From: an uncultured Alphaproteobacteria bacterium
Lineage (GTDB): Bacteria; Pseudomonadota; Alphaproteobacteria; UBA7985
Assembly: GCA_905479265.1 (NCBI GenBank)
Contig: CAJQLX010000020.1
Span: 11,906-75,905, forward strand
DNA length: 64,000 bases
Direction: 5' to 3'
In this document: in pieces, positions 16,367 to 24,853 of the stretch
Numbering within the stretch: position 1 is the stretch's first letter
Layout of the letters: every line of letters starts with the position of its first letter
Translations under genes and position numbers: made by a program
The notes under the pieces: generated by a model
Databases searched by the model: none
What the model was told of the DNA's origin: nothing
The model's input: only the letters and a program-made list of their open reading frames with translations

Positions 16367-16442
16367 TGGTGGGCGATGACAGGCTCGAACTGCCGACCCT
16401 CTCGGTGTAAACGAGATGCTCTACCAACTGAGCTAATCGCCC
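16367..16442 (-). tRNA. tRNA-Val (anticodon TAC), CCA encoded
   Basis: Reverse complement reads GGGCGATTAGCTCAGTTGGTAGAGCATCTCGTTTACACCGAGAGGGTCGGCAGTTCGAGCCTGTCATCGCCCACCA. It has the 7-bp acceptor stem, D-loop AGCTCAGTTGGTAGAGC, anticodon loop TTTACAC, T-arm GGTTCGAGCC, and discriminator A followed by CCA. Confidence 0.9.
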
Positions 16443-16724: not shown

Positions 16725-17585
16725 TTAGTTGCCCATCGCCTGTGCCAGCAAAATTGGCAGCAGTTGCTTGATGATGTCAGAGTTGTCCGCTGCTGCTGGG
16801 ATCGCAGCGTTGGCCGCAGCAGCCTTTGCGGCGGCTTCCTCGGCTTCTTTAGCCAGCTCAGCGCGGAGTTTCTCTTCGATTTCCGCTTCCAAGTCGGCGC
16901 GCTTCTGCGTTTCGTTGGCTTCGGTGATCAGCGAGTCGCCGACCAGAGACGAGCGCAAGATTTCCTGCATGATGTTTTTGACGAGCTTGGAGTGGTTGGC
17001 CAAACGGTCGAGTTCGCGCTTGCGCTGGGATGCGGCGGCGAATTCGGTGTCGAGAACATCAATGGTGCCAATCAGGGATGTAAGCTGATTGGTCAGACCC
17101 GACTCAGACAGCGGTGCCTGAGCGTAATCCGGGGATGGTGCAAGGGCATCAACCATAGAGACAGGGGCAGCTGGTGGTGCCACGGGCGCTACTGCGACGG
17201 GAGCTGCCGCGACGGGCGCAGCTGCGACGGGTGCAGGCGCTGGCGCTGGAGCAGGTGCCGGTGCTGGGGCAGCAGCAACGGAACACGTCAGAAACCGCTG
17301 TGAAGAGTATCCGACAAAGGTTGGGTTGTATGAGTCGTAAATCTCGCACCAGCCAGACTGACACGCGCGGGCATCAACGACATTACCGCGCGGCAAGGTC
17401 GCAACGATGGTGCCGTACAGCGCCGGGGTATCGCGGACGTTCAGGGCTTGCGCGGTGGTGGTCACTTGGTCGCGACAGGACGCAAATGGGTCGCCATAGC
17501 TTTGCGCGGATGCGACGCCGGCGCTTCCAGCTAGCAGTGCGGCAGCGGCCGCAAATGAAAAGACACGGTTCAAAACCAATTTCAT
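16725..17585 (-). CDS. Secreted SH3b-domain protein with Ala-Pro repeat linker and C-terminal coiled-coil (hypothetical)
   Basis: Signal peptide MKLVLNRVFSFAAAAALLAGSAGVASA. SH3b-like segment (LNVRDTPALYGTIVATLPRGNVVDARACQSGWCEIYD). (AP)7 plus AAAPVA repeats. Charged heptad region EAEIEEKLRAELAKEAEEAAAKA. Confidence 0.6.
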   Translation of the reverse strand: MKLVLNRVFSFAAAAALLAGSAGVASAQSYGDPFASCRDQVTTTAQALNVRDTPALYGTIVATLPRGNVVDARACQSGWCEIYDSYNPTFVGYSSQRFLTCSVAAAPAPAPAPAPAPAPVAAAPVAAAPVAVAPVAPPAAPVSMVDALAPSPDYAQAPLSESGLTNQLTSLIGTIDVLDTEFAAASQRKRELDRLANHSKLVKNIMQEILRSSLVGDSLITEANETQKRADLEAEIEEKLRAELAKEAEEAAAKAAAANAAIPAAADNSDIIKQLLPILLAQAMGN

Positions 17586-17936: not shown

Positions 17937-18494
17937 ATGCTTGTGACAGCGATAGGCGACACCAGACAGGGGGCGGAAGGACCAGCGAGCGAATTGCTCC
18001 GCCGTTCATCCGCTGCTGCGGGTCCGGGTGAGCTGACGGCATCGCGGTTTGTCGAATTTACCTTGAGCGATGATGCCGTGATCCATCTCTCTGGCCCAGA
18101 AGATCTGGAAATGGTGGCGCAGCTCTCTGGCTTGCTGGACCGAGACCGCAGCTTGGGCGCAGGCAGCTTGGACGAGATGCGGCTGTATATTCTGTTTCGC
18201 GCGCCCAACGGCCCGCGGCCCGGGATTGCGCTGGTGTCGGCCCGCACGGATTTGGAAGCGCTGATCCGGCGTGAGTTTGCCCCGCGTGTCACGCGCGCCG
18301 AGATTCAGCTGATCTTGCAAACCCTTGCGGGTCAAAGCCTTCAAGTCAGTGCCGTGCGGGATCGGGTCAGTATCGAGACCAAAAAGAGTCAGTCGAAATC
18401 GCTATTGAGTAAGCTGGGTTTTCCGGATTTGGGTCATTTGCGCGCCATCCTACTTGCGCGCTTAGTCATGCGACTGCGAGACGACACGGCGTAG
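17937..18494 (+). CDS. LuxR/GerE-family helix-turn-helix transcriptional regulator
   Basis: C-terminal LTRAEIQLILQTLAGQSLQVSAVRDRVSIETKKSQSKSLLSKLG fits the LuxR HTH pattern (L[TS].RE.E[VI]L..[LV]A.G.S…A..L.[IL]S..T[VI]..H…[IL]..KLG). The true start may be an internal Met. Preceded by a 350-bp AT-rich region. Confidence 0.6.
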   Translation: MLVTAIGDTRQGAEGPASELLRRSSAAAGPGELTASRFVEFTLSDDAVIHLSGPEDLEMVAQLSGLLDRDRSLGAGSLDEMRLYILFRAPNGPRPGIALVSARTDLEALIRREFAPRVTRAEIQLILQTLAGQSLQVSAVRDRVSIETKKSQSKSLLSKLGFPDLGHLRAILLARLVMRLRDDTA

Positions 18495-18718
18495 CGCGAC
18501 AGCGCACGGTGGCGCTCTAGATCAAACGCACGCGGCTGTCGGCCAAAGGCGTCTTTGACTTGGAGAATATCTAAGTCTTCTGCGCCAAGGGCACGGGTGA
18601 AGGTAAAGGCAAAAGGCTCGCGGATGTCGAAGCGCATGGATCCTGCAGGAAGAACCAGCCTCGTTCTTCCATCCCGTCGAGCGCGCGCCCAACCGCCCTT
18701 GCGCGCCTTTGCTGACGC

Positions 18719-19972
18719 TTAGCTGAGGATGGTTTCCGCTGTGAACGACCCGCCAACAGCTTGGACCGGGTCCAGTCCCCACAAGTCCTGAACAATCCCG
18801 GCATAGACAGCGCGGAAATCGGTGGTGTGCACCATGTCGTCTTCGACCAGATCCTCCCGCGCCAAAGAAGGCCGCGCCCCACCAAAGCCGCCAGCGACTT
18901 TTCCGCCAGCGAGCAGGACCGGGGCAGCGGTGCCGTGGTCCGTGCCTTCGGAGCCGTTTTCGTGGAAGCGCCGGCCAAACTCGCTGTAGGTCATGAGCGT
19001 GACGTTGTTCCAGACGCCGATCTCTCGCGCGGCGCGTTCGAACGCGGCCATTGCTGTATCGAGTTCCTGGAGCAAAAACGCGTGTTCTTCGGCTTGATAG
19101 GCGTGGGTATCGAAGCCGCCGTGGGCGACCTTCATCACCGGTGTGGTCACGCCCGCGTCGAGCAACTGCAGCGCCGCGGCGAGTTGGAGGCCAAGCGCGC
19201 TGTCCGGCATGCTGAAGTCCCGGTTGGCGGCTTGGCGCAGCTTGCGTTCCAGCAGGTCGGCGGTGCCAACGGCGTTGGAGTGAACACTCAGCAAGTGGTC
19301 GAGGGCCGCGTTTCCGCCGCTGGGTCGTACGGAGTGGCCGCCGTCCATCATCATGGTGGCGGCGCCCATGGTGCCATCATCGTAGCCGCCCAGAACTCCA
19401 GCGGTGCGCAGGGCTTCGGCTTGGTCGAAAAATTCTTCGATTTCCTCCAGCCCGGTGAAGCGCCCCGGTCCGCGCAACGGCCCCATCTCTCCGCCCAAAC
19501 CAATACCGTCGGCATCGAGGCCGAGGGTGCTTTGGTTCATCAGCCGAGAAACCCAGCCTTGGGTTTCCTTGGTGTCTGCGCCAAGGCCAGCGTTCCAGAT
19601 TTCGATGGAGCGGAAGTGGCTGCGGTTGGGGTTGGGATAACCGACGCCCTCGATCAAGCGGACTTGGCCGCGTTCCCACCCTTTGGCGAGCCCGGACAAG
19701 CTGGGGTGCAGCCCCATATCACCGCCCAGCTGCAGCACGTCTCGCCCCGACAGCGCAAGGGTTGGGCGGACGCGTTGGTAGTTGTCGTCGGCGTAGGGAA
19801 TGAGGGTGTTCAGACCATCGTTGCCGCCTTCCAGTTCAATCAGAATGAGCGTGTGGTCCTTGCCCAACCCAGCCCCGGCTGCCCAAGCAGGCGCGGTGGT
19901 CAGCGGCAAAGAGAGCGCGGATGCGCCCATCAAGCGAAGCCAGTTGCGGCGGTTCATCGAAAGCGTTGTCAT
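18719..19972 (-). CDS. DUF1501 domain-containing protein (sulfatase/alkaline-phosphatase-like), Tat-secreted
   Basis: Twin-arginine signal MNRRNWLRLMGASALSLP…AWA. 417 aa. The DUF1501 family is typically paired with DUF1800. Confidence 0.75.
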   Translation of the reverse strand: MTTLSMNRRNWLRLMGASALSLPLTTAPAWAAGAGLGKDHTLILIELEGGNDGLNTLIPYADDNYQRVRPTLALSGRDVLQLGGDMGLHPSLSGLAKGWERGQVRLIEGVGYPNPNRSHFRSIEIWNAGLGADTKETQGWVSRLMNQSTLGLDADGIGLGGEMGPLRGPGRFTGLEEIEEFFDQAEALRTAGVLGGYDDGTMGAATMMMDGGHSVRPSGGNAALDHLLSVHSNAVGTADLLERKLRQAANRDFSMPDSALGLQLAAALQLLDAGVTTPVMKVAHGGFDTHAYQAEEHAFLLQELDTAMAAFERAAREIGVWNNVTLMTYSEFGRRFHENGSEGTDHGTAAPVLLAGGKVAGGFGGARPSLAREDLVEDDMVHTTDFRAVYAGIVQDLWGLDPVQAVGGSFTAETILS

Positions 19973-20027
19973 GGTTCGGTTCCTTTCACGGATCAGCGTG
20001 CGGTGAAGTGCGGGGTGTGGTGGCGGG

Positions 20028-22217
20028 CTATTTGAGCTGAAAGCGCGGGTCGAGGACGAGCGAGATCAGCAAGTCGTCAAGCCCCTCAACCGCGCGATCG
20101 TTGGTCGCCAGCGCCGGATTGCGCACGGGCAGAAGCATGCTTTCCAGTCCCGCCGAGGTCTGCATCGGTGCGGGCAAAGCCGCCAGCCACTGGTCAGGGT
20201 CGGCAAAGGTTTCCGTCAGGCGCGACTGATAGAGCGCGGCGCGCTGCTCAAAGATTGTGTCGTAGAGGGTGCCAAACAGCGCATCGATGGCTTCGTCATC
20301 ATCGCTGCGCGGGGCAACCGCTGCGCCGATGGCCATTTCGACGATCTGTGGCGGCAGGCCCGCTGCGCCCTTGTGGCTGATGCCGCGCTCGACATCGGGC
20401 AGCTTTGGCATGGTGCGCGACAGCATGCCTGAATGATTAAAGGCATTGGCGATCCGTTTGCTGGTCTTTTTCAACGCGTCAAAGGTCGGCATGTCCAAGC
20501 CTTCTTCTGCTGCTTCAGCTGCGATATAGGACCACACTTGGTCGTCCTTGGTGTCGTCGATCAGGGTCGGGACGGCCTTGATGAGGGCGGCGATCAAGTC
20601 GCGTTCGTCCGCGCTCAACCGGCCAACACCGGGGCTGGATTCCCAAGGGTTCAGCCAGAACTCACGGACAGAATTGCCGTCTTCATCCGTTTCCGGTGCG
20701 ACGCGCTCGATCAGCCGAGACAGCGGGCATTCGGTGCCGCAGCCTTCTTGCTCAATGCCAAAGTAAACGTCACGATCCCCGTCGCCTTCGCCGATCCCGA
20801 CAAAGAAAGCGAGGCTGTGGTAGGTCTGGCCCTTGAAGCCAACATCATAGAGCGACAGGGCAAGGCCGGTTTCCTTCCAGTCGTCTTCCACGGACTTCCA
20901 CGCCCAATCCAGACCGACAAGGCCAATGCGCAAGCCTTGGCTCTCCGGCTTCATCGCCGCTTGGTTGGCGTCGGGCGCGTCATAGGGCTCGAAGCGGTCG
21001 TAGATCCACGTGTTCATCATCTCTTGCAACGAGGCTGTGCGCTGGGCGAGGCTGGCATCGGTGATCCACGCTGCGCCTTCTTGCCACCCGGCAACATTGG
21101 GCGGCATGAACAGCGTTTGACCGGCGTCCAGTGTCAAATCGTGCAGCTCCATCGCTTCGGTGGGGGTGCTGCCAAAGGTGCGGTTGAAGCCGATGTAAAG
21201 CTCCCACGGGGACTTAACCAGCGTGCCTCGGTTGGCTTGGTCCCAGAAGCCGGGCGTGCTGAGAACGGCTCGGTAGAGCGTCGGCAGATCCCAGTCCGAC
21301 GCCTTCCACTGCGCGGTAATATCGGCAACCTGCGCGGCGTCCGGGGTGTCAGAGATAAAGAAGCGCCACATTTTCTCAACGATATAGGGGCCAAAGCTCG
21401 GCTGGCTGAGGATGAGGTCCGGCAGGTCATTGGCGCTGAAATACGCCGTCGCGCCAAAGATGGTTTTCTGGCCCTTGTCGTGCGCAGAACGTTGGAACAT
21501 GAACTGGCCGGTGGAGTCCTCCAAGCTGTTCCCGGTCAGCGCGCGGGAGACTTCGCGGATGTCTTGCTCCGTATAGCCGCGCCCTTGACCCAGGGTGAAC
21601 AGCTCCAGCAGCTCGCGACCAAGGTTCTCGTTGGGTGCTTCGGCGGTGTTTTCCACGTTGTTCAAATAGACCAGCATCGCCGGATCCCGCAGCTGTGCCG
21701 CCAGCATATCTCGGAACGAGCCACCCATGGTGTCGCGCAGCGTCTGGAACTTCTGCGCGGTCAAGTGCGCGTCTTCATGGTTTTCGAACGACGTGACGAA
21801 GTGGTCCATCCAGAACATGGTCATTTGCTCTTTGAACGGGCTTTCTGTGTTCGTCGCCTCGACCATCCACCATGTGCTCAGATCCACGAGGTTGATGTAC
21901 TGCGCGCCCACGGCCAGCTCGCCCAAGGTGTCGTTCTTGCCAAAGAGGAACTCAATCGGTGCGCGCCATTGCTGGGTGAACCCTGGCGCAGGCTGGGTAT
22001 CCAGCGCATTGATGTCGTCGAGGATGCTCTCGATCAAGGCGGCACGGGTTTGTCCGGTGAAGGTGCGCAGGTCGCTAGGCGACGCGGCGAAGCTGGTGCG
22101 GGTCAGCGCGTGGCGCACGTCTTCGGGGCTTAGCGCGTCAGCATGTGCGCGCACCGTGGGGGCAAGGGCGCAGAGGGCAGCGCTGGCTGCGAGCAAGGCA
22201 CGGTTCAGGGTTTTCAT
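20028..22217 (-). CDS. DUF1800 domain-containing protein, Sec-secreted
   Basis: 729 aa. N-terminal signal peptide MKTLNRALLAASAALCALAPTVRAHA. Length and conserved segments are characteristic of DUF1800 proteins that precede DUF1501 partners. 55-bp gap to DUF1501. Confidence 0.75.
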   Translation of the reverse strand: MKTLNRALLAASAALCALAPTVRAHADALSPEDVRHALTRTSFAASPSDLRTFTGQTRAALIESILDDINALDTQPAPGFTQQWRAPIEFLFGKNDTLGELAVGAQYINLVDLSTWWMVEATNTESPFKEQMTMFWMDHFVTSFENHEDAHLTAQKFQTLRDTMGGSFRDMLAAQLRDPAMLVYLNNVENTAEAPNENLGRELLELFTLGQGRGYTEQDIREVSRALTGNSLEDSTGQFMFQRSAHDKGQKTIFGATAYFSANDLPDLILSQPSFGPYIVEKMWRFFISDTPDAAQVADITAQWKASDWDLPTLYRAVLSTPGFWDQANRGTLVKSPWELYIGFNRTFGSTPTEAMELHDLTLDAGQTLFMPPNVAGWQEGAAWITDASLAQRTASLQEMMNTWIYDRFEPYDAPDANQAAMKPESQGLRIGLVGLDWAWKSVEDDWKETGLALSLYDVGFKGQTYHSLAFFVGIGEGDGDRDVYFGIEQEGCGTECPLSRLIERVAPETDEDGNSVREFWLNPWESSPGVGRLSADERDLIAALIKAVPTLIDDTKDDQVWSYIAAEAAEEGLDMPTFDALKKTSKRIANAFNHSGMLSRTMPKLPDVERGISHKGAAGLPPQIVEMAIGAAVAPRSDDDEAIDALFGTLYDTIFEQRAALYQSRLTETFADPDQWLAALPAPMQTSAGLESMLLPVRNPALATNDRAVEGLDDLLISLVLDPRFQLK

Positions 22218-22327
22218 CGGATGTTTCCTTTCGATGAGCTCAAGGTCGTGTGGGGTCTTGTGCGGTGGGTTGATCCGGACCGGCGCGGCCCGTCTTCAGG
22301 GTTTGCTTCGGGGTCAGTTATCCGGCG

Positions 22328-22768
22328 TCAAAGGAACCAGAGGGCAAATTCTTCAGTCTCCAGCAAGAAATCGAGCAGGGCTTCGCGCTTCTCAAACGGC
22401 AGCGTGTCGAGATATTCCACGAACTCCACGAACAGCGCTCTGGACATTTCGGTGCGCGTGTCTTCCACGCGGTTGAAGTTTTCCAGCACGGCGTCAAGGT
22501 CCAGCTCCTCCCGCCATAGCGCTTGCAGCATCTCGTCGGCTTGCTCGTCAATCAGCCCGCCCAGACCTTCGATTTGGCTGTATCGATTTTCGAGCAGGGC
22601 ATCGAGCGCCGCCCAATCGTCGTCGTTCCAGCCTGAGTTGGCCTCCAACGCTTGCCACGGTTCGCCGCCGCGCTGGTTGTTCCAGTAAACGATGCCGACC
22701 GCGCTGATCACGCCGATGTTGAGGAACAGCGAGCCGAGCGCAATCCAGAGGATCAAACGGTTCTGCAT
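22328..22768 (-). CDS. Membrane-anchored acidic periplasmic protein (hypothetical), third gene of the ECF operon
   Basis: 146 aa. N-terminal TM helix (LILWIALGSLFLNIGVISAVGIVYW) followed by a highly acidic helical domain. 3-bp gap to the anti-sigma-like gene. Confidence 0.5.
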   Translation of the reverse strand: MQNRLILWIALGSLFLNIGVISAVGIVYWNNQRGGEPWQALEANSGWNDDDWAALDALLENRYSQIEGLGGLIDEQADEMLQALWREELDLDAVLENFNRVEDTRTEMSRALFVEFVEYLDTLPFEKREALLDFLLETEEFALWFL

Positions 22769-22771
22769 GGT

Positions 22772-23140
22772 CTATTTCCTTTTCCGCCCAGCATCGAAGC
22801 TGAGGCTTAGGCTATCGCCGATGGGGCGAACTTCGATTTGGTGCGGGCCTTTGTTTGAGGAGCCGCCGACCAAGCCGCTTGCCAACTGCGCCCCGGCCGT
22901 CGCGCCAACGCCAAAGCACGCCATCATGCCAAAGATCAGCGCGGCGAGCGTCGCTCGGCCTTTGCGCTGGGCTGGGGCGGTTGCGGCGGCAACCTCTGCC
23001 GCATCGACAATCAGCAGCGCCAGATCAGGGTCGTCCAGCATCGCCCGGTCCAGCGCACGTTGCTCCGGCGCGCTCAGCTTGATCCCCGCAGCGCGCTGTG
23101 CGGCGAGGGCGAGGATGTCATCAGGGTCAAAGGGGCTCAT
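22772..23140 (-). CDS. Putative anti-sigma factor (single-pass membrane protein)
   Basis: Start MSPFDPDDILALAAQRAAG… overlaps the sigma-factor stop (ATGA), the classic sigma/anti-sigma coupling. It has a helical N-domain, one TM segment (ATLAALIFGMMACFGVGATAGAQLA) and a short periplasmic tail. The longer 182-aa ORF is probably an over-call. Confidence 0.5.
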   Translation of the reverse strand: MSPFDPDDILALAAQRAAGIKLSAPEQRALDRAMLDDPDLALLIVDAAEVAAATAPAQRKGRATLAALIFGMMACFGVGATAGAQLASGLVGGSSNKGPHQIEVRPIGDSLSLSFDAGRKRK

Positions 23141-23141
23141 A

Positions 23142-23750
23142 TCAGGCAGCCTTGTTCGCAGCAGGGGCAGGACCGTCCGCGCCCGGCACATCAAATGTGC
23201 CATCGGGCCGGATCCCGGCGTCCCGCAGTTTCTTGAGCGCGCGGGCCTTGAGCACCCGCACGGTGTTATCGGAAATGGACAGCGCCCGGCCAATGTCGGG
23301 ACCGTCGAGGTCGCGGTCAAAACTCAGCACCAACACCAGCGTTTCGCGGTCGGTCAGCATGCCTGCGGGGACCACGTCGCGGATCGAGGAGCGGTGCGCT
23401 GGCGCGGTCGTGGGCAGGTCTGGCGCACTGTCGAGATCACCGCTGGGGTGACGGCGTGCGGCGCGCAGTGTGTTGGCTGCCGTTGAACCTGCGACCACGG
23501 CAAGGAAGGCACTGAGCTTTCCGCGCTGGGGGTCAAAGCGGCGCAGCAGGGCGAAGTCCTTCGCCGCCAGCCGCTCCAGCGTGTCGGCGACACTGTCTTG
23601 GAACAGTCCGGCGTCGGGCGTTAGCCCCTGTCGTGTAAAGGTGCGGCGCACAGCGGCCTCCAAAACGGGGCGTGCCATCAGGACAAATCGGCTCCAAGTG
23701 CGATCATCACCCGCATACAAGGCGGTAAAATCGATTTGATCCAAGTCCAT
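23142..23750 (-). CDS. RNA polymerase sigma-70 factor, ECF subfamily
   Basis: Region-4 HTH (LTDRETLVLVLSFDRDLDGPDIGRALSISDNTVRVLKARALKKLR) and a region-2-like N-domain. About 200 aa. Confidence 0.8.
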   Translation of the reverse strand: MDLDQIDFTALYAGDDRTWSRFVLMARPVLEAAVRRTFTRQGLTPDAGLFQDSVADTLERLAAKDFALLRRFDPQRGKLSAFLAVVAGSTAANTLRAARRHPSGDLDSAPDLPTTAPAHRSSIRDVVPAGMLTDRETLVLVLSFDRDLDGPDIGRALSISDNTVRVLKARALKKLRDAGIRPDGTFDVPGADGPAPAANKAA

Positions 23751-23815
23751 TCGGGCACACGGTTGTTCGTTGTTTCAAAAGCCTTACACAGGCAGAGTAC
23801 GCATTCGTTTACGCC

Positions 23816-24776: not shown

Positions 24777-24853
24777 TGGTCGGGCTGGCGGGGTTCGAAC
24801 CCGCGACCTCTCGTCCCCCAGACGAACGCGCTACCAGGCTGCGCTACAGCCCG
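24777..24853 (-). tRNA. tRNA-Pro (anticodon GGG), CCA encoded
   Basis: Reverse complement reads CGGGCTGTAGCGCAGCCTGGTAGCGCGTTCGTCTGGGGGACGAGAGGTCGCGGGTTCGAACCCCGCCAGCCCGACCA. D-arm GCGCAGCCTGGTAGCGC; anticodon stem TTCGT/ACGAG with loop CTGGGGG; T-arm GGTTCGAACC. Confidence 0.85.

Follow-up and report, generated by a model that had tools for sequence, protein, structure and literature searches.

A CnrX-like sigma/anti-sigma module beside a DUF1800/DUF1501 pair in an uncultured alphaproteobacterium

The window (the whole stretch of DNA analysed, 64,000 nucleotides) carries at 18719-23750 five co-directional open reading frames on the minus strand, encoding an ECF-type sigma factor, a candidate anti-sigma factor, a membrane-anchored CnrX/NccX-like protein (position +2) and two exported proteins of the DUF1800 and DUF1501 families (Table 1). 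Open reading frames and Pfam matches bear out the five genes and the identities that a sequence-only reading had given them, and the set is no chance group of frames, because homologues of all five products keep the same order elsewhere. The spacings of 3 bp before the third gene (anti-sigma TAG-ACC-ATG) and of roughly 110 bp before the DUF1800 gene (110 bp in the sequence) were also described correctly; 55 bp separate DUF1800 from DUF1501. The ATGA coupling proposed for the sigma and anti-sigma genes was mistaken: the junction reads gcc TGA t ATG agc, with one T between stop and start, i.e. tight spacing without overlap. This junction varies among relatives, from a 4-nt overlap (L001) to gaps of 1-3 nt (L005, L008).

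Table 1 Genes and other features of the locus
Feature	Coordinates	Strand	Product	Remarks
Candidate operon promoter	23784..23812	minus		-35 GTAAAC 23812-23807, 17-nt spacer, -10 GTGTAA 23789-23784
Leader GGCTTTTGAAACAACGAACAACCGTGTGCCCGA	23751..23783	minus		between candidate -10 and sigma ATG; near-invariant in four relatives
Sigma gene	23750..23142	minus	202 aa	Sigma70_r4 match; ECF-type, sigma2 + sigma4 only
Anti-sigma gene candidate	23140..22772	minus	122 aa	position +1 after sigma
TM-anchored CnrX/NccX-like gene	22768..22328	minus	146 aa	Pfam Metal_resist PF13801
Intercistronic gap, 110 bp	22218..22327	minus		poorly conserved except DUF1800 ribosome-binding site (alignment, four relatives)
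DUF1800 gene	22217..20028	minus	729 aa	PF08811, 320 bits
DUF1501 gene	19972..18719	minus	417 aa	PF07394, 103 bits
Perfect 8-bp hairpin GGAAGAAC-GAGGCTG-GTTCTTCC	18648..18670	minus		48 nt past DUF1501 stop, read from sequence

The sequence-only reading had looked to an autoregulated promoter upstream of 23750, and a conserved candidate dyad does lie there. The block is invariant in four aligned relatives despite diverged flanking sequence, GTAAAC-N17-GTGTAA has a single exact match within the 64-kb window, and the sister lineage L099 carries CCTAAACG-N14-CTGTGTAT with the same spacing. Across the sigma family, the dyad GGGG[AC][TC]-N16-17-CGTA was found upstream of the sigma gene in 21 of 72 regions (1.3 in shuffles), which argues for autoregulation; that the window-clade dyad differs from this family-wide motif counts against the autoregulated-operon explanation favoured below. 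The leader contains no Shine-Dalgarno sequence and has no Rfam match. No copy of the promoter motif occurs in the 110-bp gap, even allowing 3 mismatches, the terminator scan returned no terminator-like site there on the minus strand, and the RNA fold z-score of the gap is 0.34. Throughout the window clade the corresponding gap is 80-140 bp long and poorly conserved and may hold a separate promoter, a further point against a five-gene operon; the junction is ~10 bp in Reyranella-type loci. The hairpin beyond DUF1501 possibly marks the operon end, and was not called by the terminator scan because no U-tract follows it.

The sigma factor matches Pfam Sigma70_r4 (E 3e-9), with Sigma70_r2 below threshold (17.4 bits) and TIGR02937 at 39.3, under its cut-off of 42.9; in the sigma-family alignment, sigma2 was detected in 11 of 15 members. 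Its closest solved structures are the ECF sigmas RpoE (2q1z) and SigL, together with FliA region 4, and CnrH was not among the PDB matches at E<=0.01. The window clade has diverged in both sigma2 and sigma4, and the loss of canonical sigma2 residues from the window protein again weighs against the explanation favoured below. With 214 representatives at E<=1e-10, the family is a small ECF group (~200 clusters at 50% identity), and the trio of sigma, anti-sigma and CnrX-like sensor is nearly universal in the sampled contexts; judged from these sequences, the trio is the conserved core of the group.

The candidate anti-sigma factor comprises a cytoplasmic part of ~60 aa, one hydrophobic segment (a TM helix at ~aa 61-86) and a periplasmic tail of ~36 aa; a single TM and a short periplasmic tail are common to the anti-sigmas of both clades. 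Its sequence can be aligned with those +1 proteins from distant members of the family that bear the anti-sigma helix AAWLDGRL. Pfam zf-HC2 matches 4 of 18 anti-sigma family members, and the family profile matches RslA weakly (3hug_B, E 0.044); on its own, the window protein matches nothing in Pfam, zf-HC2 included. This result, with one His and one Cys in 122 aa, accords with the earlier statement that the ChrR zinc motif and cupin domain are absent.

The third product had been described as a membrane-anchored acidic periplasmic protein; acidity (pI 4.05, 29 D/E vs 9 K/R) and anchor both hold, but its membership of the CnrX family (Metal_resist) had gone unrecognised. PF13801 scores 39.6 bits (cut-off 29.2), and the family profile matches NccX (3e-8), CnrX (6e-8), Spy (6e-7) and CpxP (4e-3) in the PDB, identifying the protein by homology as a membrane-anchored CnrX/NccX relative, in whose TM segment S13, N17 and G25 are invariant in both clades. 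The acidity is probably lineage-wide, because DUF1800 and DUF1501 are acidic too (pI 4.49 and 4.94). Where CnrX has its ligands H42, H46, E63, H119 and M123, the family consensus has l, a, l, a and l, and the window protein contains neither His nor Cys in its 146 aa; Ni/Co bound at the canonical CnrX site is discounted as the operon cue.

The DUF1800 protein matches PF08811 at E 3.5e-95 across aa 36-417 and is a long form, with a C-terminal extension of ~310 aa. Its AF2 model (pLDDT 80.8) shows a helical N-domain, a four-strand beta meander (aa 430-489) and a helical C-terminus, for which Foldseek returned no PDB match (best E 0.2); C493 and C497 are invariant. The Sec secretion ascribed to it agrees with its N-terminus, judged Sec-like solely by eye (K2, R6, hydrophobic run, VRA-HA). 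The DUF1501 protein (PF07394, E 2.3e-29) carries the twin-arginine motif NRRNWLR, whose R8 and R9 are kept in 66/69 and 69/69 diverse DUF1501 proteins, in line with the Tat secretion claimed for it. Invariant in all 69 are D52, N55, S118, H119, D288, H290, E331, D345 and H346, including the groups S118-H119, D288-x-H290 and D345-H346. The sequence matched no PDB chain; Foldseek best matches of the model were S1 sulfatases, the AP-superfamily protein 3lxq and the periplasmic domain of YejM (probability ~1, TM 0.3-0.4). The model is moderately confident (pLDDT 71.6), which counts against the enzyme part of the explanation offered below. The structure prediction suggested earlier, read together with the alignment, points to an AP-superfamily-like fold with invariant Asp, His and Ser at the sites expected for metal and nucleophile, and DUF1501 is a sulfatase/alkaline-phosphatase-fold protein with Ser118 as putative nucleophile. 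The fold first proposed, sulfatase/phosphatase-like, is retained in this result; sulfatase activity is unlikely, because the formylglycine motif C/S-x-P-x-R is missing despite the matching fold (absent from the 69 diverse members, with P-N-R-S-H-F-R-S invariant instead). A phospho-ester hydrolase or transferase is more probable than a formylglycine sulfatase.

Loss of synteny between the ECF and DUF pairs had been named as evidence against a shared operon; the five-gene order is kept in close relatives and in 19 distant genome loci (Reyranella, others), and also in 3-4 metagenome loci. In the distant loci the sigma is 33-39% identical and flanking genes differ, and the trio followed by DUF1800/DUF1501 occurs in several divergent alphaproteobacterial lineages. 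Viewed from the sigma side, among 31 sampled loci with enough downstream sequence, the DUF pair adjoins the trio in just three, plus one fragment; the trio stands without it in 28 (16-17 of which are one syntenic lineage), so the trio-pair linkage is lineage-specific. The "dedicated" ECF control first envisaged for the DUF pair is therefore not family-wide, most sampled family members having the trio alone. Viewed from the DUF side, all 76 loci with a contig reaching far enough have DUF1501 after DUF1800, and the pair is common in soil Reyranella and PVC bacteria also. No recurrent upstream regulator accompanies ~45 of 80 DUF1800/DUF1501 loci, which counts against the operon reading, and the sigma-family HMM gave one weak match at other DUF loci (20 bits, ~4 kb downstream in L078). 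Within the pair's sister clade, the place of the trio directly upstream is taken by a two-component system of OmpR type (10/10), so that the long-form pair always has a dedicated envelope-signalling module. This system is nearest to CopRS/CusRS, with heavy-metal RR/HK models best in 8 of 8 proteins at scores far under curated cut-offs; the HK alignments start at ~residue 165-186 and cover the C-terminal part only (inferred cytoplasmic), without the N-terminal sensor region.

With little more than even confidence, we favour an autoregulated switch of CnrYXH type, co-transcribed with the genes for DUF1501, a periplasmic metalloenzyme with a Ser nucleophile, and its helical partner DUF1800. The sequences establish the gene content, the homologies and the conservation of synteny, catalytic-type residues and the promoter-like block. 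The regulatory half would be a three-component transmembrane switch of ECF-type sigma, anti-sigma and a four-helix protein of the CnrX/NccX/Spy/CpxP superfamily, with the single-pass anti-sigma keeping the sigma at the membrane. Because the anti-sigma has just ~36 periplasmic residues, the CnrX-like protein would have to provide the sensing surface; a periplasmic cue may alter it, and the change would reach the anti-sigma, probably via adjacent TM/juxtamembrane segments, and free the sigma. The freed sigma would then transcribe the operon from the candidate autoregulated promoter upstream of its own gene, and read-through, which we infer across the 110-bp gap, would take transcription on into the payload half. 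There, Sec-exported DUF1800 and Tat-exported DUF1501, the latter a putative AP-superfamily metalloenzyme, may act jointly on a periplasmic or envelope substrate. The trio-pair linkage provides an experimental handle on the very common uncharacterised DUF1800/DUF1501 pair.

It appears unlikely that the two halves are merely adjacent, the trio being self-contained with targets elsewhere and DUF1800-DUF1501 an independently transcribed neighbour. Such an arrangement would fit the trio standing alone in the majority of the family members sampled, where the next genes are unrelated or on the opposite strand, the 110-bp gap lacking a copy of the sigma promoter motif, and the missing adjacent regulator at most DUF pairs. 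However, the same sigma family neighbours DUF pairs across several divergent lineages whose flanks differ, and does so with two DUF1800 architectures, Reyranella-type junctions measure ~10 bp, no terminator-like site was found in the gap, and other DUF loci gave the family HMM only the L078 match. Rather less probable is a quality-control loop, in which a Spy/CpxP/ZraP-like +2 protein would monitor DUF1800/DUF1501 folding or metallation, or general envelope protein stress, with misfolded exported proteins titrating it off the anti-sigma. CpxP and ZraP are established modulators of envelope signalling systems, Spy nearly equals CnrX as a PDB match and CpxP matches also, and the CnrX metal ligands, like His and Cys in the window protein, are all absent; yet NccX and CnrX are the best matches, the +2 protein has a TM anchor and is encoded beside a short anti-sigma, as CnrX is but the soluble Spy/CpxP are not, and the DUF proteins are excluded as its general client because most lineages have the trio without them. 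Lower again we place phosphorus scavenging, with DUF1501 as a Tat-exported phosphatase/phosphodiesterase like PhoD/PhoX in a marine oligotroph and DUF1800 as an accessory: neither PhoB/PhoR nor pst genes lie near the examined loci, control is by ECF or CopRS-like two-component systems, not PhoBR, and soil Reyranella and PVC bacteria commonly carry the pair too, against which stand the modelled AP-superfamily fold, the Ser at the nucleophile position, the D/H pairs, Tat export and the marine alphaproteobacterial MAG lineage of the source. Least probable is a canonical CnrYXH/NccYXH-like regulon for resistance to heavy metals (Ni/Co/Cd-type), despite NccX and CnrX as top PDB relatives, a Pfam family named for heavy-metal resistance, the metal-stress ties of ECF281/290/291 in the main published description (PMC7826278) and the heavy-metal best models of the sister-clade proteins (8/8), since 0 of 5 CnrX ligands are conserved, the order is sigma, anti-sigma, X, unlike cnrYXH, CnrH is missing from the PDB matches of the sigma at E<=0.01, the conserved unit in close relatives has no RND or CDF efflux genes, and the two-component scores and truncated HK alignments fall short.

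The CnrYXH-like module that we favour is a three-part envelope switch of a known kind, not a new kind of system. Nor is the ECF module an unclassified novelty: in the main published description (Casas-Pastor et al. 2021, PMC7826278), the sigma genes of ECF281 and ECF290 are followed by one for an anti-sigma (+1) and one for a heavy-metal-resistance protein (+2), i.e. the same sigma, +1 anti-sigma, +2 Metal_resist order as in the window and throughout its sigma family. Compared with ECF281 as described there, the window clade has a sigma diverged in sigma2/sigma4, another promoter-like dyad and an anti-sigma without zf-HC2 signal, and that main description does not mention DUF1800/DUF1501 as neighbours of ECF281/ECF290. 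Other DUF1800-DUF1501 pairs and the DUF1501-PSCyt/PSD1 modules of Planctomycetes and Verrucomicrobia share the two Pfam families and their order; the published contexts are chitin-synthase islands or cytochrome-like PSCyt partners, the DUF1501 twin-arginine signal has been described before (PMC5122149, PMC3542564), and the literature offers a function for DUF1800/DUF1501 in no context, whereas the window pair lies behind an ECF trio and its DUF1800 is extended by ~310 aa. With S1 formylglycine sulfatases and the AP superfamily, DUF1501 shares conserved Asp, His and a hydroxyl residue at the expected metal/nucleophile positions, but lacks C/S-x-P-x-R and reaches TM-scores of just 0.3-0.4. CnrYXH/NccYXH of Cupriavidus metallidurans (ECF291) likewise combines a sigma (CnrH), a small anti-sigma (CnrY) that crosses the membrane once and leaves a very short tail in the periplasm, and a TM-anchored periplasmic sensor protein (CnrX), to which the window +2 protein is detectably homologous over the whole periplasmic domain. 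The two systems differ in gene order (sigma, anti-sigma, X vs Y-X-H), in a sigma not detectably close to CnrH, in an anti-sigma family whose relatives are class-I zf-HC2-type domains, not CnrY, in the absence of all CnrX Ni/Co ligands from the +2 family, and in the linked output, which is DUF1800/DUF1501 in the window and an RND efflux pump in CnrYXH/NccYXH.

Five co-directional ORFs on the minus strand of 18719-23750 encode a sigma factor, an anti-sigma factor (the +1 protein), a Metal_resist/CnrX-like protein (the +2 protein), a DUF1800 protein and a DUF1501 protein. We lean, with modest confidence, towards reading the locus as a CnrYXH-like switch that drives a DUF1800/DUF1501 operon. By this mechanism, the CnrX-fold +2 protein would sense a periplasmic cue, other than Ni/Co at the canonical site, and relay it to the short anti-sigma factor; the freed sigma factor would then transcribe its own operon, including DUF1800 and a Tat-exported DUF1501 metalloenzyme.

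Features of the operon and its surroundings (window coordinates)
Feature	Position	Strand	Remark
tRNA-Val(TAC)	16367-16442	-	
Secreted SH3_3-domain protein	16725-17585	-	Pfam 7.7e-8
185-aa ORF (orf185), convergent with DUF1501	17937-18494	+	kept in close relatives L005 and L008, not in L001
Perfect 8-bp hairpin	48 nt past DUF1501 stop		read from sequence
DUF1501 gene	19972..18719	-	
DUF1800 gene	22217..20028	-	
DUF1800 C-terminal extension, ~310 aa (aa 418-729)	20031-20966	-	outside Pfam model
CnrX-like (+2) gene	22768..22328	-	
Anti-sigma (+1) gene	23140..22772	-	
Sigma gene	23750..23142	-	
tRNA-Pro(GGG)	24777-24853	-	

The sequence-only reading had given spacings of 3 bp and 110 bp, and both are right when read from the sequence: the anti-sigma/+2 junction is TAG-ACC-ATG, and 110 bp precede DUF1800. 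Its ATGA overlap between the sigma and anti-sigma genes is an error, the junction being TGA-T-ATG with the genes merely abutting; relatives have a 4-nt overlap or gaps of 1-3 nt here. The DUF1800/DUF1501 junction, also read from the sequence, is 55 bp. The 110-bp gap is weakly conserved, a terminator scan found no terminator-like site on its coding strand, and the structure of the gap RNA was not significant. Read-through from the sigma promoter into DUF1800/DUF1501 would be the simplest reading of this layout. A sigma-70 promoter scan returned no match, terminator-like sites did not exceed chance level, and an Rfam scan identified no family beyond the two tRNAs.

The two tRNA genes bracket a segment holding the operon, an alpha/beta hydrolase gene, orf185 and the SH3 protein. 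We rejected a genomic island for this segment; such an origin seems unlikely because the GC content is unremarkable and the neighbours are common to relatives. The C-terminus of orf185, which lies outside the conserved five-gene unit and has no significant Pfam or NCBIfam match, resembles by eye a LuxR/GerE helix-turn-helix. The SH3_3 protein combines an (Ala-Pro)n run with a Lys/Glu/Ala-rich C-terminal half, and SH3 or NlpC/P60 genes lie near the operon in relatives too.

Close relatives (sigma 66-82% identical) carry the same five genes, which is weak evidence since the whole neighbourhood is syntenic there. We sampled the DUF side with a DUF1800 alignment scan limited to one genome per species (at least 80 loci). 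Among the matches listed, 19 further loci from Reyranella, Reyranellaceae, Rhodospirillales and 'Rhizobiaceae' MAGs had the same sigma family 1.1-1.2 kb upstream of DUF1800, scoring 250-319 bits to the family HMM as against at most 20 bits elsewhere, with an anti-sigma factor and a TM-anchored LxxxQ-repeat protein encoded in between; two truncated contigs also showed Metal_resist upstream of DUF1800. The Reyranella-type loci, distant carriers of all five genes, differ in a short DUF1800 (about 515 aa), a trio/DUF1800 junction of about 10 bp and a divergent GGT-like neighbour, versus the alpha/beta hydrolase in the window. These distant loci have other neighbours; what is conserved is the five genes and not their surroundings. 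Reyranella soli NBRC 108950 and Reyranella sp. CPCC 100927 are cultured carriers of the five-gene form. Some 45 other informative loci among the matches listed carry the DUF pair, and a Pfam survey of the genes ahead of it found no recurrent family there.

The sigma-side sample, comprising four locus contexts and a metagenome scan with a narrow sigma alignment, revealed the sigma, anti-sigma and Metal_resist genes nearly always together, with DUF1800/DUF1501 after this trio in only 3 of 31 loci whose downstream sequence reached 1.9 kb or more; one fragment adds a further case. The linked/unlinked ratio is biased because a single syntenic lineage, contributing 16 or 17 of the unlinked loci, dominates the metagenome sample; after collapsing it, roughly eleven distinct contexts are unlinked and about six are linked. 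Neighbour-joining, without support values, places the DUF-linked sigma factors in no fewer than two separate parts of the sigma tree, and the DUF1501 tree likewise has ECF-linked members in two or more regions. We conclude that this ECF group is built around the trio, to which the DUF pair is attached in a recurrent minority of lineages, the window's included. Mere adjacency of trio and pair, for which the stand-alone trios and the distant five-gene loci have to be set against each other, is in our judgement unlikely. Overall, the observation in the sequence-only reading was essentially correct and its operon idea reasonable, with synteny in the close relatives and the 19 distant loci; the dedicated ECF control module that it proposed may describe this locus, where the trio adjoins the pair, but the association is lineage-specific, and family-wide the trio mostly stands alone.

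One locus (L123:5519-8583) encodes a sigma factor and a 200-aa +1 protein followed directly by DUF1800 and DUF1501, leaving no room for a Metal_resist gene. In the large syntenic lineage that dominates the metagenome sample, whose trio stands alone (L105, L112, L116, L118, L120, L122, L124-L127, L129-L132, L135, L137, L142, L143, L145, L148), a gene ending in ...FPAFIVIDDKGNDFF lies 40-60 nt upstream of the trio, and the sigma start is apparently TTG.

Promoter prediction upstream of 23750, as the sequence-only reading had proposed, yielded a candidate dyad: the block GCGTAAAC-N17-GTGTAAGG, with a conserved leader behind it, does not vary among four relatives whose flanks have diverged, and occurs once in the 64-kb window. 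We found no second copy in the 110-bp gap or elsewhere in the window, where matches with up to 3 mismatches were below chance. The sister lineage L099 carries CCTAAACG-N14-CTGTGTAT at the same spacing. With more sequences, and only then, a family dyad became clear, GGGG[AC][TC]-N16-17-[CT]GT[AT]N[AG], present in 21 of 72 non-redundant upstream regions (shuffles: 1.3 on average, 5 at most) and located 33-83 nt upstream of the sigma gene in 20 of the 21 regions carrying it. This dyad looks like an autoregulated ECF promoter and could serve for finding unlinked regulon members in complete genomes. The variants GGGGAT(G)-N16-CGTATA and GGGGCCT-N17-CGTTAG occur upstream of sigma at L067, L081, L092, L096, L098, L114, L139 and the Reyranella-type loci. 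Equating the window-clade block (that of the window locus and its close relatives) with the Reyranella-type block was rejected, as alignment by eye showed different motifs; a divergent dyad in the window clade fits the divergence of the sigma2 and sigma4 residues there.

Membership of the ECF class (group 4) was judged on the presence of sigma2 and sigma4 only, a length of about 170-220 aa and a match to an ECF or sigma-70 model. The window sigma factor (202 aa) matches Sigma70_r4 above the Pfam cut-off (36.6 bits, E 3e-9), and scores below threshold against Sigma70_r2 (17.4 bits, cut-off 24) and just under it against TIGR02937 (39.3, cut-off 42.9), because canonical sigma2 residues are gone from the window clade (e.g., DAAQDVF to QDSVADT, TWL to AFL). 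Within the family alignment, r4 was detected in 15/15 and r2 in 11/15 members, and the family is alignable over its full length, the window clade being 33-39% identical to distant members. The closest solved relatives are the ECF sigma factors RpoE and SigL (full-length) plus FliA region 4; CnrH was not among the PDB matches at E<=0.01. A window-clade profile searched against 1.84 billion representatives retrieved 214 proteins at E<=1e-10; the window sigma family is a small, distinct group. The window comes from an uncultured marine alphaproteobacterium: a locus 99% identical to it belongs to a MAG labelled Alphaproteobacteria bacterium, and the closest named sigma homologues among the matches listed are 'TMED89' and a 'Kiloniella sp.' MAG.

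The window anti-sigma factor (122 aa) has one TM/hydrophobic segment (aa 61-86) with about 36 residues past it. It has no Pfam domain and no zf-HC2 match, and the H-x3-C-x2-C residues are absent. Both clades have alignable +1 proteins that cross the membrane once and end in a periplasmic tail of 30-40 aa, and the AAWLDGRL anti-sigma helix is present in distant members. Across the family, Pfam recognised zf-HC2 in 4 of the 18 +1 proteins aligned, with weak or faint matches in L094-L097; the sole PDB match of the family profile, a weak one, was the anti-sigma factor RslA.

The +2 protein matches PF13801 Metal_resist (39.6 bits, cut-off 29.2), as do its counterparts in relatives and throughout the sigma family. 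Residues 3-29 anchor it in the membrane at the N-terminus, the periplasmic part is acidic, and the protein contains neither His nor Cys. Since DUF1800 (pI 4.49) and DUF1501 (pI 4.94) are acidic as well, low pI values seem to be characteristic of this marine lineage. The single sequence gave no match against the PDB; with the family profile, we obtained NccX (4clv, 3.1e-8) and CnrX (4wwb, 5.8e-8; CnrX chains to 1e-6), then Spy (6e-7), CpxP (4e-3) and ZraP (0.39), the match spanning the whole periplasmic domain. Since NccX and CnrX rank first over the whole domain, the +2 protein is a genuine CnrX/NccX homologue inside the Spy/CpxP superfamily. A Spy/CpxP-like quality-control loop, with Spy and CpxP among the matches and NccX and CnrX at their head, appears distinctly unlikely. 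We take the Ni/Co ligands of CnrX to be H42, H46, E63 and H119 plus M123, located on the chain as printed; opposite them, in the HMMER alignment, the +2 family consensus has l, a, l, a and l. On this alignment, the Ni/Co site is not conserved in the +2 family.

DUF1800 (PF08811, 320.1 bits, threshold 26.1, aa 36-417 only) and DUF1501 (PF07394, 103.2 bits, gathering threshold 27) are taken to act together because DUF1501 comes next after DUF1800 in 76/76 loci with enough contig among the matches listed. NCBIfam gave no name for four of the five operon proteins, and the full texts, titles and abstracts examined assign neither DUF1501, which only 12 open-access papers mention, nor DUF1800 a function. 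At least 7,997 of 8,000 scored candidates were DUF1501 relatives at E<=1e-10. Agrobacterium vitis has two tandem DUF1800-DUF1501 pairs (PMC5122149), echoed by two in a Thiothrix MAG (L083:5270-10647). Two DUF1800 proteins are among the abundant bacterial proteins of the arsenic-/barium-mineralising vesicle fraction of Entotheonella (PMC12981691), an anecdotal link to metal handling.

The Tat signal assigned to DUF1501 from sequence alone was borne out by the twin-arginine MNRRNWLRLMGASALSL before a hydrophobic stretch, with R9 in 69/69 and R8 in 66/69 family members, which predicts export. DUF1501 had no PDB match as a single sequence or as a family profile. Its AF2 model (pLDDT 71.6, pTM 0.75) retrieved S1 sulfatases, the AP-superfamily protein 3lxq and the YejM periplasmic domain as top Foldseek matches, the S1 sulfatases at E 4e-5 to 1e-3 and probability about 1 with a TM of only 0.3-0.4. 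Invariant polar residues in 69 diverse members are R9, D52, N55, R69, S118, H119, D288, H290, E331, R334, N339, D345 and H346, of which D52, S118, D288-x-H290 and D345-H346 come after predicted strands. In the alkaline-phosphatase superfamily the metal site is made up of an Asp that follows strand 1, a nucleophilic Ser or Thr, and D/H pairs further along the chain. These residues of DUF1501 appear comparable, and the pattern would fit such a metal site with a Ser nucleophile. A formylglycine sulfatase is argued against by the motif at the nucleophile position, P-N-R-S-H-F-R-S, invariant in the 69 members; the formylglycine motif C/S-x-P-x-R of S1 sulfatases, whose fold the DUF1501 model shares, is absent from all of them. 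The sulfatase/phosphatase-like fold proposed in the sequence-only reading agrees with the model. Weighed with this residue pattern on one side and the CnrX-fold regulator on the other, phosphorus scavenging as the role of the operon is in our view very unlikely.

The DUF1800 model (AF2-type, pLDDT 80.8) opens with a helical N-domain. A four-strand beta meander comes next at aa 430-489, the invariant C493-x3-C497 lies just after it, and the C-terminal region is again helical. No relative was found among solved structures by Foldseek (best E 0.2) or against the PDB with the single sequence. The C-terminal extension is common to the window clade and a two-component-linked Rhodobacterales clade. 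Other long DUF1800 variants differ in length (e.g., L029, L032, L073).

That clade, the sister of the window DUF1501, comprises Yoonia, Shimia, Cognatiyoonia, Loktanella and MAGs (L009-L011, L013-L019), and in 10/10 loci the genes immediately ahead of the long DUF1800-DUF1501 pair encode a response regulator of the OmpR type and a HAMP histidine kinase. Heavy-metal subfamilies (TIGR01387, TIGR01386) were the best NCBIfam models for 8/8 regulator proteins, all under the CopRS/CusRS/CzcRS cut-offs (response regulators 210-219 versus 279; kinases 144-179 versus 292); the kinase alignments cover only the C-terminal part, inferred to be cytoplasmic, from about residue 165-186. The regulator is swapped: where the window clade has the trio, the sister clade has a CopRS-like two-component system. 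The replacement suggests that the DUF pair depends on input from envelope ions or envelope stress. It also underlies a broader proposal, one we consider doubtful, that DUF1800/DUF1501 form a periplasmic metal- or cation-stress-responsive enzyme system wired per lineage to interchangeable envelope ion sensors. Under that proposal, the window lineage and Reyranella would use a CnrX-fold ECF switch, sensing something else because the Ni/Co site is lost, and Rhodobacterales a CopRS-like system; the inducer of either regulator would then show what the DUF pair family as a whole does physiologically. Few uncharacterised pairs of exported bacterial proteins are as widespread as DUF1800/DUF1501, and the conserved sigma/anti-sigma/sensor switch directly upstream offers a practical handle on it.

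Among known systems, RpoE-ChrR had been excluded by the sequence-only reading, rightly: ChrR combines a zinc motif of the ZAS type with a cupin domain at the C-terminus, whereas the window anti-sigma factor, with one His, one Cys and no Pfam match, has neither. In the ECF classification 2.0 (PMC7826278), ECF281 and ECF290 were split from the old CnrH group ECF20; their +1 gene encodes an anti-sigma factor, of the zinc-finger type in ECF281, and their +2 gene a heavy-metal-resistance protein. Set beside that published description, this architecture is that of the window trio: the PF13801 protein at +2 is shared with ECF281, and zf-HC2 at +1 is recognised in some family members, the window protein itself giving no match. 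Since the regulatory half is an already described architecture, the gain is incremental, not conceptual. Relative to CnrYXH/NccYXH, the gene order is sigma, anti-sigma, X in the window and Y-X-H there; no CnrH-like sigma factor was detected, and the anti-sigma profile weakly matches RslA and is not CnrY-like. Canonical metal resistance is highly improbable for a unit that has the Metal_resist protein and, in the relatives compared, lacks efflux genes corresponding to the cnrCBA target. The likeness to CnrYXH/NccYXH lies in the +2 protein, a TM-anchored homologue of CnrX, itself a four-helix hooked hairpin; with the Ni/Co ligands of CnrX missing from its family, the locus would represent a CnrX-fold sensor that has shed all metal ligands, and so bears on the diversification of the CnrX sensor family.
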